Source of the DNA: an uncultured Acidimicrobiales bacterium
GTDB taxonomy: Bacteria > Actinomycetota > Acidimicrobiia > Acidimicrobiales > SHLQ01
Direction of reading: 5' to 3'
DNA: 46,231 nucleotides
Assembly (NCBI GenBank): GCA_964445255.1
Contig: CAYUKM010000003.1
Coordinates: 1 to 46,231, forward strand
A model generated the notes under the pieces. That model was not told the DNA's origin, did not search any database, and worked only from the letters and a program-made list of their open reading frames with translations. Both the position numbers and the translations under genes were made by a program. Position 1 is the first letter of the stretch. Every line of letters starts with the position of its first letter. Positions 27,875-31,732 of the stretch are shown here, one piece after another.

Positions 27875-27979
27875 CTGCTGTGAACTCCTCAAACGTCCAG
27901 AATCTCATCAATCCTGTTGTCCCTTGTTTTTAGTCCGTCTCGCGCCTGTAGCGAAAGCAAACGCAGCGAAACTACAAAG

Positions 27980-28006
27980 CGTGACGTCTCCAACGGAGAC
28001 CTCACG
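27980..28006. terminator. Hairpin downstream of 28012-28770 (possible terminator)
   Basis: CGTGA-C-GTCTCC-AAC-GGAGAC-C-TCACG. Confidence 0.45.
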
Positions 28007-28011
28007 TTGAG

Positions 28012-28770
28012 TTAATCGCTGTCGGGATCATCGGCAGGTGCAGCGTGAAAGATCTCGATGGTCGACTGCAAGATGTCGTTGTTTGGAACGAACACGATGT
28101 CCTGGTGGCTCGTGATCTGGGTCGACGTTGAGCCGATCGCCTTTATCTCGCCGTGCAGATCGCCCAACGAAATCGAGTCGCCTACTTTGAGTTCTCGGCG
28201 GAGCGCTCGTCCCGCTGCGACCTGTTGGGCGACGTCGCGGCCACCGAGTCCGGCAAGCAGTGCGGCAGCAAGGGCCAGTCCGAAGAACACTGCGGCGACG
28301 ACCACCGAGATAATCGTGGTATCAATACCGAGCTGGTTCGCTGCGATCACAAGGACGAAGCCTTGAATGGTCCATTTGATTATCATCGGGACTCGGCGCC
28401 GCAACTCGGCAGATACATGGCCGAGGCTCCGTTCGACGCCAGTTTCGACGACTGCGCCGACGATGTTGCCAATGATGAGGACGATTGAGGCCGCGAGCAG
28501 CCGTGGAATGAAGCGGACGAAATCGTCGATCAGCCGGTCGAGATCGGGTCGGTTGATGATGCCGAGGGCAGCGATCAGCCCGACGATCAATATCAAAGAG
28601 AGGACGAGCGTGGCGATCGCTTCGGCGGAGGCGCGCACGACATCGCTGCCACTTCGGGCGGCGAGACGTCGAGCGATCGCAGCCGCGACGCTTCCAAGCA
28701 CGAAGCCCGCAATGATGACAGCGAGAGCTATTAACGCGTCAGTCGCGCTTGTTTGGGCGAATAAAAGCAT
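28012..28770 (-). CDS. MscS/CmpX-like mechanosensitive channel family protein
   Basis: TM-helix repeat FIPRLLAASIVLIIG, LGID, GLGGRDVA; Sm-like beta domain KVGDSI...GEI..IG...VPN. Confidence 0.8.
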   Translation of the reverse strand: MLLFAQTSATDALIALAVIIAGFVLGSVAAAIARRLAARSGSDVVRASAEAIATLVLSLILIVGLIAALGIINRPDLDRLIDDFVRFIPRLLAASIVLIIGNIVGAVVETGVERSLGHVSAELRRRVPMIIKWTIQGFVLVIAANQLGIDTTIISVVVAAVFFGLALAAALLAGLGGRDVAQQVAAGRALRRELKVGDSISLGDLHGEIKAIGSTSTQITSHQDIVFVPNNDILQSTIEIFHAAPADDPDSD

Positions 28771-28902
28771 CGCCTATACCTCCGTCAGGAAAGCCACTGT
28801 ACGGGGTGGTTAGCTAAATAGCGAAAACGAGAAGCCTCATTTGTGCGCGGTTAAACAGCACTTCGGTGCACCGCCCATCTGGCACGTAGCGCGCGAGCGG
28901 TG

Positions 28903-29265
28903 CTACTCGTCGTCGTCGGCAACGATCGTGGGCTCGTCCGGGTCCGTATTGGTGATGATGATCTCACCGGTTTCGCGTGGGACGCCGAGCATCGAGCCGA
29001 GCAATTCCATGTCTTCGCGGCGCTGGAGGCGTTCCGCGAGTCGTTCACTCACCCGTTCGTGGAGATCGTCGGGGGGTTGCAGCAACGTCAAGAGCGCAGG
29101 CCCGATGTCGGACGGTTCCGGATTGTCATTGGAAACCGAGAGGCTGATGAGGTCAAGCTTTGACGCGCAGATCTCACACGTTTCTAGGTGCTCATCGATT
29201 TTCGGGTCGGCTACTTCGCCATCGAGCCATCGGGCGAGTTGGTCAGGCTTTGGATGTCTAGCCAT
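28903..29265 (-). CDS. Zinc-binding (ZAS, zf-HC2) anti-sigma factor, soluble
   Basis: L..WLDGE......EHLETCEIC; TAATG overlap with the sigma stop. Confidence 0.8.
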   Translation of the reverse strand: MARHPKPDQLARWLDGEVADPKIDEHLETCEICASKLDLISLSVSNDNPEPSDIGPALLTLLQPPDDLHERVSERLAERLQRREDMELLGSMLGVPRETGEIIITNTDPDEPTIVADDDE

Positions 29266-30029
29266 TACGCCCTCCAATCCGAGAGAGCTGCGGCGAGTAC
29301 TCGTCGTGCTCGCAGCAGACGGGTCTTGACCGTTGGGAGAGGTACTTCCAGGAGATCGGCAATCTCGTCATAGGACAAGCCCTCTACCTCACGAAGAACA
29401 ACGATTGATCGAGAGAGCTCGTCGAGTTTGTCGAGCGCCTCTTCGAAGTCCGACATCGTAATTCGGTCGAGGACTTGGCTCTCGGTGGACGAGCGCGTGG
29501 GGGCTTCAGGGAGAAGGCTGGGATCTCGCAACTCCTCTCTTCGCTTTCGTAGCGAAGAGATGGCCGTGTTGTGCGTGATACGCAACAGCCATGACCGCAA
29601 AGAAGAATCGCCTCGGAAGCTTGGCAGGGCGTTCCACGCTTTCAAGATCGCATCTTGGGACACGTCTTCGGCCAAGGCGCTATCGCGTACGACCGAGTAC
29701 GCCACCCGGTAGACGGAGTCGAGGTGTTCGCGGACGAGGACCTCTAGTTGTTGCTCGGGTGTGAGTGTCGTATCCATAGCGTCATGCGGGGGATCGGACT
29801 TACCGTTCCCTCCCGAGACGGTAGCCGTATCGACGCCGTTGTTGGTAGCAGTTTGGGCTTCGGCGCTAGAAGCTTGGGTGTTCATGCCATCAGCCACGGT
29901 CAAGGTGAAGAGCGCCGCGGTCTCTTCACGAAGCGCTGCGGCCATAAACTGCCACGCCCGGTGGGCTACAGCCGTAACTGGGCCACCGATTTGTATATAC
30001 CTCGGATTGCTGGCAAGTATTGCGGACAT
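29265..30029 (-). CDS. ECF RNA polymerase sigma factor
   Basis: Region 2 AEDVSQDA.LKAW..LPSFRGDSSLRSWLLRI.HN; region 4 VLREVEGLSYDEIA..L..P..TVKTRL.RAR; start uncertain. Confidence 0.93.
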   Translation of the reverse strand: MSAILASNPRYIQIGGPVTAVAHRAWQFMAAALREETAALFTLTVADGMNTQASSAEAQTATNNGVDTATVSGGNGKSDPPHDAMDTTLTPEQQLEVLVREHLDSVYRVAYSVVRDSALAEDVSQDAILKAWNALPSFRGDSSLRSWLLRITHNTAISSLRKRREELRDPSLLPEAPTRSSTESQVLDRITMSDFEEALDKLDELSRSIVVLREVEGLSYDEIADLLEVPLPTVKTRLLRARRVLAAALSDWRA

Positions 30030-30037
30030 AGTGTTCA

Positions 30038-30063
30038 GACGTCCTGAGTTCCGGCAAAGTCGC
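30038..30063 (-). promoter_or_regulatory. Candidate ECF promoter GCGACT-N16-CGTC for the sigma gene
   Basis: AGTCGC at 30058-30063 and GACG at 30038-30041 on +; -10 ends 8 nt before ATG 30029. Confidence 0.65.
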
Positions 30064-30099
30064 GTATCAGAAGGACACGAATAAAAACCCGCAGATTAC

Positions 30100-30125
30100 G
30101 CGACTTTCGGAATTGTCCGGGCGTC
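30100..30125 (+). promoter_or_regulatory. Candidate ECF promoter GCGACT-N16-CGTC for the 30170 gene
   Basis: GCGACT at 30100-30105, CGTC at 30122-30125; mirror copy of the minus-strand element. Confidence 0.65.
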
Positions 30126-30169
30126 AGTGCTGCAGTCCCTGACAAAAAGTGAAAGGCACATAAACCAAA

Positions 30170-30832
30170 ATGCTCGTAGATTCAATAATCGACTCCTTTG
30201 GGAACCTAATCGGTTCCTTCATCGAGTTTGTCCCAGCCCTCGTGGGCGCCCTCTTGCTCCTCTTCGTAGGCAAGATAGTGTCCGGCTTCATCGCCGGACT
30301 CTTCAAGAAGTTGCTCGATGCGATCAAGTTCGATCGTGTAATCGACCGCAGTGGTCTTGGTACCTATGTTGAGCGAGCTGGTTACCCAGACTCATCAGCA
30401 CTGCTTGCCAAGATCGTTGGCTGGATCATCATGCTCGTCTTCGTTCAGCTCGCCGTCACCACGCTCGGCATCGACTCCATCGAGGAACTTGTCACCACGT
30501 TCATCTCCTGGATCCCTAACGTGATCATCGCGATCATCCTCCTCGTCATCACCGGCGCTGCAGCGAATATCGCTCGCGACGTTCTCTCCCCATCGGTCGC
30601 CAACGTCAACGCTGGCAGCCTTATCCTCCGTGTTGTAAACGCAATGATCTGGATCACCGGTGGCTTGCTTGCATTCAACCAGCTCGGTTTCGGCGAGGAG
30701 CTCGTACAGCAGCTCTGGACCGCTCTTACCTCTGGTCTCGTAGCGATCATCGTCATCAAGTTCGGTATCGGTGGCATCTGGGCCGCTCGTGACCGCTTCT
30801 GGCCAAAGGTCTACGACTCAGTCCAGGGTTAA
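30170..30832 (+). CDS. CmpX-like conserved TM-helix protein (MscS-associated family)
   Basis: Two repeats FVPALVGALLLLFVG and WIPNVIIAIILL; FGIGG; strongly biased codons; GAAAGG RBS. Confidence 0.8.
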   Translation: MLVDSIIDSFGNLIGSFIEFVPALVGALLLLFVGKIVSGFIAGLFKKLLDAIKFDRVIDRSGLGTYVERAGYPDSSALLAKIVGWIIMLVFVQLAVTTLGIDSIEELVTTFISWIPNVIIAIILLVITGAAANIARDVLSPSVANVNAGSLILRVVNAMIWITGGLLAFNQLGFGEELVQQLWTALTSGLVAIIVIKFGIGGIWAARDRFWPKVYDSVQG

Positions 30833-30892
30833 TCCCGACGCTGGCCTAGCCCAGCACCCAAAAGGTGGGTTTAGCTGCCTTGTCATACAACT

Positions 30893-30945
30893 CGGCCCCC
30901 GCTGCATCCTTGCAGCGGGGGCCGCGGTTTGTTTTGGGTCGGGTT
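30893..30945 (+). terminator. Intrinsic terminator
   Basis: CGGCCCCCGCTGCA-TCCT-TGCAGCGGGGGCCG 14-bp stem followed by a T-rich tract. Confidence 0.85.
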
Positions 30946-31003
30946 TGTTTTGGGTCGACTGTTCGTTCCGAGTTGAACGAGATGCGAAGTCTGGGAAGCG
31001 CAG

Positions 31004-31732
31004 TTACAGCTCGTCGATGCGGTGGAACGACTCAGCCACGTTGAAGTCGGTTCCGGTGGCCATCGCCGCCATCTGTTCCATCTCGCGGGTGTGAAAGGCC
31101 GCGGTTTCGCTATCGGGGTCGTCCGTGATCACCATCGTGGTCTCGAATTGACTCTCGTGGGCGAGTAGCGCATTGATTTTCGCGTCGGTATAACCCTCCA
31201 CGTCTTCGACGTGGTTGGGTTCCTCGCTCTCGAAGAGCAACAACGTGTCTGGCCGGTGGCGGGGCAGATCCAACTCCGGGAAGAAGAACGGATCTCGGGC
31301 CGCCACGATTCCTTCGACGGCGAGAAAGCCAGCGTTGCGATGGTCTGGGTGTAGTCGCCACCGCTTCCAGGGGTCGTGTCCGAACACGACGTCGGGCTGG
31401 GTAATGCGGATGACACGGGCGACCTCGCGTCGCCACTGCAGCTCCGCGGTGAGCTCACCGTCGACAGCCCCAAGAAAGAAAACCTCGCCTGTGGCGCCAA
31501 GGCGCTTGGCAGCCTCGCGCTGTTCGTCCTTTCGGATATCGACCAAGGCAACGGTGTCGGCGTTCTCGTCCCAAGTTCCTTTCGAGCCGTCGGTGCATAT
31601 GAGGTGGTTCACCACCGCTCCAGCAGCAGCCCACTTGGCCAACGTCGCGCCGCATTCGAACTCGATGTCGTCGGGATGTGCTGCGATCGCAAGCACTCGG
31701 TCGGGGGTCTGAAGGTTCGTTGTTGGGTTCAT
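31004..31732 (-). CDS. PIG-L/LmbE family deacetylase
   Basis: AHPDDIE, T.GSKG, R..EQ.EAA..LG, DG.L, HPDHR. Confidence 0.92.
   Translation of the reverse strand: MNPTTNLQTPDRVLAIAAHPDDIEFECGATLAKWAAAGAVVNHLICTDGSKGTWDENADTVALVDIRKDEQREAAKRLGATGEVFFLGAVDGELTAELQWRREVARVIRITQPDVVFGHDPWKRWRLHPDHRNAGFLAVEGIVAARDPFFFPELDLPRHRPDTLLLFESEEPNHVEDVEGYTDAKINALLAHESQFETTMVITDDPDSETAAFHTREMEQMAAMATGTDFNVAESFHRIDEL

Follow-up and report, generated by a model that had tools for sequence, protein, structure and literature searches.

Twin Promoter-Like Motifs Between an ECF Sigma Factor Gene and a CmpX-Like Gene

The window analyzed here is a stretch of 46,231 nucleotides (nt) on contig CAYUKM010000003.1 of assembly GCA_964445255.1, from an uncultured Acidimicrobiales bacterium. 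The element of interest is located in the 140-nt gap between the gene of an extracytoplasmic function (ECF) sigma factor on the minus strand and the gene of a CmpX-like membrane protein on the plus strand. In this gap the motif GCGACT-N16-CGTC occurs on both strands, one copy facing each gene, in the arrangement of a -35 box, a spacer and a -10 box. On the sigma side, genes for a putative anti-sigma factor and a small MscS-like channel protein follow, as listed in Table 1.

An initial annotation, made from the sequence alone, had interpreted this arrangement as a pair of mirror-image promoters read by the adjacent sigma factor. The inverted repeat, its position and the motif on both strands were confirmed against the sequence, as was the separation of 8 nt between the end of the minus-strand CGTC (30038) and the ATG of the sigma gene (30029). 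The 11-nt arms of the repeat, AAAGTCGCGTA and TACGCGACTTT, are 100% complementary and are separated by 30 nt, while the two promoter spacers are TTCGGAATTGTCCGGG and TTGCCGGAACTCAGGA. Both spacers contain CGGAAYT, to which the annotation had drawn attention; the string is present in the window and is not conserved in orthologues, so that it is regarded as lineage noise. No sigma-70-like promoter was found in the region 29900-30300.

In the window, the strict motif was matched twice compared with 0.39 expected, and at least two matches appeared in 5 of 100 window shuffles. A scan of the window's genome for GCGACT-N16-CGTC, proposed earlier as a check, displayed no enrichment, with 25 matches and 25 in the reversed control. 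Because of the shuffle result and this lack of genome-wide enrichment, the motif count in a single genome is weak on its own, and both figures would suit a motif pair that is a functionless chance coincidence or a recent local duplication. What goes beyond chance is the presence of both copies within one 140-nt divergent gap and, above all, their conservation in relatives.

Table 1. Positions of the genes, motifs and predicted transcription starts of the locus within the window.
Feature	Position	Strand	Details
Sigma operon autoregulatory promoter (predicted)	30038..30063	-	-35 GCGACT 30063-30058, 16-nt spacer, -10 CGTC 30041-30038
CmpX-like gene promoter (predicted)	30100..30125	+	-35 GCGACT 30100-30105, 16-nt spacer, -10 CGTC 30122-30125
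Inverted-repeat left arm AAAGTCGCGTA	30056..30066		Extended -35 box of the minus-strand promoter
Inverted-repeat right arm TACGCGACTTT	30097..30107		Extended -35 box of the plus-strand promoter
Predicted sigma operon start	30029	-	A of ATG; from the -10-to-ATG distance of 8-9 nt
Predicted CmpX-like gene start	30134	+	8-nt distance from -10 applied; 5' untranslated region of ~36 nt
ECF sigma factor, 254 amino acids (aa)	29265..30029	-	PF04542 residues 98-164, PF08281 residues 195-243
Putative anti-sigma factor, 120 aa from ATG at 29265	28903..29265	-	HxxxCxxC motif
Small MscS-like channel protein, 252 aa, third gene of the sigma operon	28012..28770	-	PF00924 and PF05552
CmpX-like membrane protein, 220 aa, divergent from sigma	30170..30832	+	Two PF05552 stretches

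Conservation of Both Motifs Within the Genus

From a search of 41 genomes, 25 orthologous sigma loci (L001-L025) were obtained with 55-100% identity; 21 of these include the CmpX-like gene. All 21 carry GCGAC(T/C)-N16-CGTC on the cmpX side, 34-52 nt upstream of the ATG and with unrelated spacers. On the sigma side, GC[G/A]AC-N17-[C/G/A]GTC was present in all 25 orthologous loci, the spacing being fixed and the spacer sequence variable. The strict form on this side was seen in 14 of 20 genus loci, and the remaining six retain the same geometry, five with GGTC or AGTC as the -10 box and one with GCAAC as the -35 box; sites in L007 and L022-L025 complete the 25. The scan of relatives that the initial annotation had called for is answered by conservation upstream of all 25 orthologous sigma genes. 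The motif was not seen at five non-orthologous ECF loci of 36-40% identity (0/5); L026 has only a questionable variant, 667 nt upstream.

Counting bases column by column over the 41 sites defined the boxes more closely. The -35 core is GCGAC in 40 sites and GCAAC in one, and so departs from the typical AAC core. The base just upstream of GCGAC is C in 40 of 41 sites, T occupies the position three bases upstream in 30 of 41, A or T is found at the three positions that follow, and the rest of the spacer is not conserved. In its extended form the consensus is tNcGCGACwww and, after ~14 more bases of spacer, (c)GTC. The -10 box originally given as CGTC thus holds for the window, while the invariant core is only GTC, its first base C being present in 36 of 41 sites. 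Bases that were fixed in the search pattern cannot vary among these sites; the flanking bases, the location of the sites and the drift of the spacers are free of this constraint. Bipartite, conserved, placed before the sigma factor's own operon, with a spacer of ~16-17 nt and a CGT/GTC-type -10 box, the sigma-side element has the features of an ECF autoregulatory promoter.

Co-Variation of the Motif With the Sigma Factor Clade

The comparison was extended to a wider set of 80 loci from genomes named as uncultured Acidimicrobiales, Acidimicrobiia and Actinomycetota, with the weakest from Solirubrobacterales and Thermoleophilaceae. Here the pattern CGCGAC-N16/17-CGTC was sought on either strand in the 650 nt that precede the sigma core. 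It was found in 28 of 29 loci with a sigma identity of at least 60%, in 14 of 17 at 54-60%, in 7 of 11 at 50.5-54% and in 0 of 23 below 50.5%, that is, in 49 of 57 loci at or above 50.5% compared with none of the 23 below, and in none of 79 equal-length downstream control stretches. The motif is accordingly kept down to ~51% sigma identity across loci that share no similarity in spacer or flanks. Chance coincidence or recent duplication is already contradicted by these comparative data, and we regard it as hardly credible.

When 301 genomes were drawn evenly from the class, the sigma factor was present in 15, and the strict sigma-side motif in 5 of 14 non-self loci; in two further loci of this draw the sigma gene is preceded, in the same direction, by a cmpX-like gene. 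Homologues of cmpX occurred in 28 of the 301 genomes. Those at 40-42% identity reside in genomes holding a sigma factor of the GCGAC clade, and the motif precedes 4 of 5 by pattern, the fifth being an N15 variant read by eye. In L120 and L121 the motif-bearing cmpX gene is located on a different contig from the sigma gene, suggesting action in trans. More distant cmpX-like genes did not carry the motif upstream (0/20), and three further loci gave no tblastn match.

A sister clade of Acidimicrobiia (L125-L128, L133 and L137) resembles the present locus in layout, with an ECF gene divergent from one of the 20 distant CmpX-like genes and twin mirrored promoter motifs in the gap. It differs in the boxes themselves and in the sigma factor, which is only 36-41% identical: at all six loci the gap, read by eye, displays the canonical -35 box in G(G/A)AACTT-N16-(G)(T/G)GTC on both strands. 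Since this clade also has twin promoters, built on GGAACTT, the twin architecture would predate the GCGAC box, which would have changed together with the sigma factor.

Alignment of 33 sigma factors of the GCGAC clade with 6 of the sister clade gave the discriminating columns L149/Y, H153/T, T155/L and S158/N in sigma-2, and P232/N, K235/R and L238/I in the sigma-4.2 helix. Across 86 sigma factors, GCGAC accompanies x-T-(V/I)-(K/R)-T-R-L-(L/F/Y)-R in this helix, and the motif-lacking sister groups have G-Q-V-K-I-R-L or G-S-V-K-G-R-L in its place. No single residue explains the switch of box, because K and R at position 235 both occur with GCGAC. For reference, the specificity positions of Todor et al. 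are Arg171, Ser172 and Asn84 of RpoE (PMC7776599, in part).

As a separate observation, linkage of ECF genes with CmpX- or MscS-like genes is widespread in Acidimicrobiia and, by tblastn, reaches the sigma neighbours of Solirubrobacterales and Thermoleophilaceae.

The Inverted Repeat as a By-Product of Two Extended -35 Boxes

The 11-nt inverted repeat might alternatively serve a dimeric transcription factor as operator or form a DNA cruciform, with the CGTC boxes incidental. The repeat is indeed perfect, and as single-stranded DNA it folds better than shuffled sequence (z = -3.3), as good a value being reached by 2 of 200 shuffles. Short palindromes with stems of at least 4 bp are also commoner than expected in the divergent-side spacers of L148-L201 (10 of 42 unique spacers compared with 3.1 expected; 1 of 500 shuffles reaches this), and this test overstates the effect because the sequences are mutually related. 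In the sigma-side spacers no enrichment was found (5 of 45, 4.9 expected). The stretch of the window corresponding to the divergent-side spacer palindromes is 30106-30121.

Behavior of the repeat in relatives points in the opposite direction. Only the three closest genomes share the full 11-nt arm, and in nine of 20 loci it is reduced to the 6 nt CGCGAC. Over the 20 loci, the two -35 pentamers stand 12 to 118 nt apart; the value for L014 is not meaningful, its sigma-side core being GCAAC. Because the arm shrinks and the distance between arms varies in this way, an operator dyad of fixed geometry, which a dimer could not follow over such distances, is excluded. Each arm is instead held at a fixed 16 nt from its own GTC box and points at a gene, single copies of the motif precede unlinked genes, and no predicted transcript includes both arms. 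Overall an operator or cruciform is very improbable. The repeat described in the initial annotation is thus real and is not a unit: its variation fits two independent promoters with extended -35 boxes that, in the genome of the window, happen to share one sequence.

Predicted Transcription Starts and a Probably Leaderless Sigma mRNA

The position of the sigma-side motif relative to the coding sequence is notably constant. In 19 of 21 loci an ATG stands 8-9 nt after the -10 box, in frame with the sigma gene and followed by a stop-free stretch of up to 95 codons. Of the other two loci, L023 has no ATG at 8-9 nt, and in L016 (G006) the ATG 8 nt after the -10 box opens a 14-codon open reading frame out of the sigma frame. 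This mini-frame ends overlapping a downstream sigma ATG, and it seems that the N-terminal extension has been replaced there by a coupled leaderless mini-frame. In the wider set, a start codon (ATG or GTG) follows the -10 box of the sigma-side site at a distance of 7-10 nt in 24 of 24 cases at an identity of at least 60%, in 9 of 13 at 54-60% and in 2 of 7 at 50.5-54%.

Because the distance from -10 box to ATG is fixed at 8-9 nt, transcription would begin at the A of the sigma ATG at 30029, and the sigma mRNA is probably leaderless. The same spacing was used to predict the start of the CmpX-like transcript in Table 1.

A Small Candidate Regulon

Since the strict pattern is not enriched genome-wide, a weight matrix was built from the 41 sites and run over the window's genome, with the reversed genome as control. 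Sites with scores of at least 20 numbered 6 compared with 0 in the control, those of at least 18 numbered 8 compared with 2, and those of at least 14 numbered 35 compared with 11. The highest score in the genome, 28.9, belongs to the cmpX-side site. Apart from the two sites in the window, the top scores were found before an aquaporin gene (PF00230), a Wzz-like gene, the genes of two small hydrophilic proteins without family assignment, and a non-coding contig end. Among aquaporin orthologues of the genus, 18 loci have readable upstream sequence, and in 13 of these the motif stands 52-97 nt before the gene; three truncated loci were left unjudged, and aquaporin paralogues (39-44% identity) lack it in all cases (0/6). 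The expectation that the twin promoters would yield a regulon motif directly from sequence is thereby supported, since the matrix finds further conserved targets.

Five further genomes were searched with CGCGACWW-N15-CGTC, giving 53 matches compared with 32 in the reversed control. Ten of the 53 are the known sigma, cmpX and aquaporin sites and 40 others were inspected; the G014 sites on C19, C31 and C33 were left out. Many of the 40 are inside long open frames and are chance-like. The recurrent intergenic sites precede the same hydrophilic proteins, Wzz-like genes with a weak PF02706 match (3 genomes), two pairs of BON-domain proteins, a 60-aa membrane peptide and a membrane protein of ~256 aa (3 genomes). 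Because the targets comprise channel-like, aquaporin, BON-domain (OsmY-like), hydrophilic and Wzz-like genes, their annotation suggests an osmotic, envelope or membrane-tension response.

The gene of the ~256-aa membrane protein, which has no Pfam family, displays an additional feature. In G000 (C74:13450-13719, equivalent to L034:2450-2720) and in L080, L087, L093 and L105, its GCGAC-type promoter is followed by a leader of 230-320 nt with two or three hairpins, the first beginning at the predicted start. The hairpins have a stem of 13-16 bp and an invariant CCCGCC loop, and over 11 copies compensatory changes occur at 11 of 16 predicted pairs. The leaders gave no Rfam match at E <= 1 and may represent an undescribed cis-regulatory RNA. 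Hairpins with the same loop (GGT..CCCGCCACC) were observed at C33:1254, C34:19982 and C76:1128 of G000, two of them followed by a T-run in the manner of an intrinsic terminator, so the loop may be a recognition element beyond the leader of this gene.

A further set of sites, L090, L095, L096 and L101 of G002 together with L086 (G024), shares a near-identical sequence after the -10 box (..tatccgta) and has no clear downstream gene. One possibility is a repeated promoter that accompanies a family of small RNAs or elements.

Probable Autoregulation by the Adjacent Sigma Factor

We consider it likely, with good confidence, that the gap holds two outward ECF-type promoters with a GAC-containing -35 box, through which the adjacent sigma factor regulates its own operon. 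The minus-strand promoter would drive the operon of sigma factor, HxxxCxxC anti-sigma factor and MscS-like protein, while the plus-strand promoter would drive the CmpX-like gene through a leader of ~36 nt. Most likely both sites would be read by the adjacent sigma factor, resulting in positive autoregulation that is checked by the anti-sigma factor. In the GCGAC sigma clade the -35 box would have shifted from the usual G(G/A)AAC to GCGAC, and the same type of promoter is predicted before the aquaporin, BON-domain (OsmY-like), hydrophilic and Wzz-like genes and the membrane protein gene with the structured leader. The earlier proposal that this sigma factor reads an unusual GAC-containing -35 box and fires in both directions finds comparative support in the conservation of the motifs, in their tracking of the sigma clade and in the different box of the sister clade.

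Several points weigh against this reading. The strict pattern is no commoner in the window's genome than in its reversed control, and in the five further genomes the excess is modest; because genome-wide enrichment is near zero, the regulon would be small and most strict matches would be chance occurrences in coding sequence. The strict form is absent from 8 of the 57 sigma homologues at or above 50.5% identity, one of them, L183, having no more than 31 nt of sequence before it, and 5 of the 18 aquaporin orthologues lack the motif. To these may be added the out-of-frame ATG of L016. The GGAACTT sites of the sister clade were read by eye, and the sigma-4.2 residue differences between the clades are correlations only.

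The last of these points is that the window's genome has 15 matches over the TIGR02937 cut-off, and because of this another of its sigma factors could in principle read the sites, the adjacent one being a target and not the reader of otherwise real promoters. A CGTC -10 box is, moreover, common to several ECF sigma factors of Bacillus subtilis (PMC5758882, in part). We nevertheless judge this unlikely. The motif follows the phylogeny of the adjacent sigma factor, as the division at 50.5% identity demonstrates, and in the sister clade another ECF sigma factor goes with another box at the corresponding position. Unlinked cmpX genes with the motif sit in genomes that hold a GCGAC-clade sigma factor, and ECF sigma factors usually autoregulate (PMC7826278, in part). 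Autoregulation by the adjacent sigma factor remains the preferred explanation.

Genes of the Module

The sigma factor belongs to the ECF (group 4) sigma-70 family by its Pfam and TIGR02937 matches. Among NCBIfam models only the superfamily model TIGR02937 exceeded its cut-off (112 bits compared with 42.9), and no equivalog model did so. The sigma-2 domain begins at residue 98, after a poorly conserved N-terminal extension of variable length. The closest solved chains are Mycobacterium tuberculosis SigH (E = 1.9e-21) and SigE (E = 8.5e-18). SigE also possesses a long N-terminal extension, with sigma-2 beginning at about residue 84-91. The similarity to SigH and SigE is generic for ECF sigma factors, and neither is known to be linked to channel genes. 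Both recognize GGAA-type -35 boxes and are controlled by anti-sigma factors of the HxxxCxxC type.

The start codon of the putative anti-sigma gene overlaps the sigma stop codon, and the protein has no obvious membrane segment. By tblastn it was recovered from 23 of 25 genus-search loci and 42 of 80 wider loci, with HxxxCxxC in 23 of 23 and 37 of 42 of these, respectively; residues H26, C30 and C33 are invariant over 20 sequences. Its motif and its position directly downstream of the sigma gene are those of a zinc-binding anti-sigma factor, and no curated family was matched in Pfam (E <= 0.01) or NCBIfam (E <= 0.001).

The MscS-like gene adjoins the sigma gene in 25 of 25 genus-search loci and 75 of 80 wider loci. 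A predicted complex of its cytoplasmic part with the anti-sigma factor scored 0.00, which is uninformative for or against binding. The CmpX-like protein matches PF05552 with 57.2 bits compared with a cut-off of 22, and its gene is divergent from the sigma gene in 20 genus loci. Shortly downstream, at 30858-30922 (+), a match to Rfam sR084 was obtained with 21.3 bits compared with a gathering score of 95 (E = 0.83); it is regarded as chance and was the only Rfam match over 27500-31500.

Relation to Known Systems and Significance

That ECF sigma factors usually autoregulate, and that promoters of ECF groups are routinely predicted from upstream regions, is established (PMC7826278 and PMC7776599, each in part), so the method and logic of the motif inference used here are standard. 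Promoters of the B. subtilis ECF sigma factors have the form tgaAACntttt followed by CGTC or CGTA (PMC5758882, in part). The comparison drawn in the initial annotation with SigM-type promoters is a fair one on this basis: the promoters of SigM, SigX, SigW and SigV share with those of the present locus the geometry, the CGTC -10 box and a T-tract after the -35 box, which on the cmpX side is followed by TTT. They differ in that the -35 core here is GCGAC, without AAC, and that many sigma-side sites have AAA in place of TTT.

In gene content, the closest published parallel is the SigX-CfrX-CmpX module of Pseudomonas aeruginosa (ECF102), which is tied to membrane or osmotic conditions. There, too, an ECF sigma factor is linked to a PF05552-type CmpX-like protein and cmpX is a target of the sigma factor, a SigX-dependent promoter being located upstream of cfrX-cmpX (PMC7641640); this likeness is drawn from published descriptions and family matches. 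Regulation of cmpX in Pseudomonas and Flavobacterium has also been predicted by Todor et al. (PMC7776599, in part). In the part of the group descriptions available, no ECF group other than ECF102 is associated with a channel of mechanosensitive type (PMC7826278), and a mechanosensitive-channel-like gene is likewise found near the sigma gene in the window. According to the supplement of the same source, in part, ECF102 is confined to Bacteroidetes and Gammaproteobacteria, with no conservation of its predicted promoter motif, and the SigX consensus is said to lack a precise definition (PMC7641640). The present locus departs from this module in its host, a member of the Acidimicrobiia whose relatives are metagenomic Acidimicrobiales and Acidimicrobiia with a conserved motif, in the evident autoregulation, in the HxxxCxxC anti-sigma factor and in the second, MscS-like gene of the operon.

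A literature search gave no paper joining GCGAC, CGTC and ECF, prior computational coverage being possible, and nothing relevant on Acidimicrobiia, ECF and mechanosensitive together. The string GCGAC was not found in the examined part of the ECF group descriptions (PMC7826278 supplement), nor in the examined, possibly incomplete, supplements of Todor et al. (PMC7776599). Autoregulation of ECF sigma factors is itself known; what adds interest here is the -35 box without AAC, the predicted leaderless sigma mRNA, the natural pair of sigma and promoter clades and the parallel to SigX-CmpX.

The present analysis provides a directly testable promoter motif and a first candidate regulon for this sigma clade of uncultured marine Acidimicrobiia. 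With the same gene architecture and different boxes, the GCGAC and GGAACTT clades constitute a natural experiment on joint change of sigma and promoter specificity. Linkage of ECF genes to CmpX- and MscS-like genes outside Proteobacteria and Bacteroidetes also offers a simpler system for the question of how a channel communicates with transcription, which is open for Pseudomonas SigX (PMC7826278, in part; PMC7641640).

More tentatively, and with rather low confidence, the sigma factor, the soluble anti-sigma factor, the MscS-like and the CmpX-like proteins might form an old Actinomycetota module that converts membrane tension into transcription, in which one clade re-tuned its sigma factor and all its promoters from GGAAC to GCGAC. 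The channel proteins would then be both sensors and main targets, and gating upon osmotic shock would free the sigma factor. If this were true, the module would represent a natural coordinated rewiring of sigma factor and promoter specificity, as well as an independent counterpart of the Pseudomonas SigX-CfrX-CmpX pathway. The module was found across Acidimicrobiia, and MscS-like genes stand beside related sigma genes in Thermoleophilia-type genomes.

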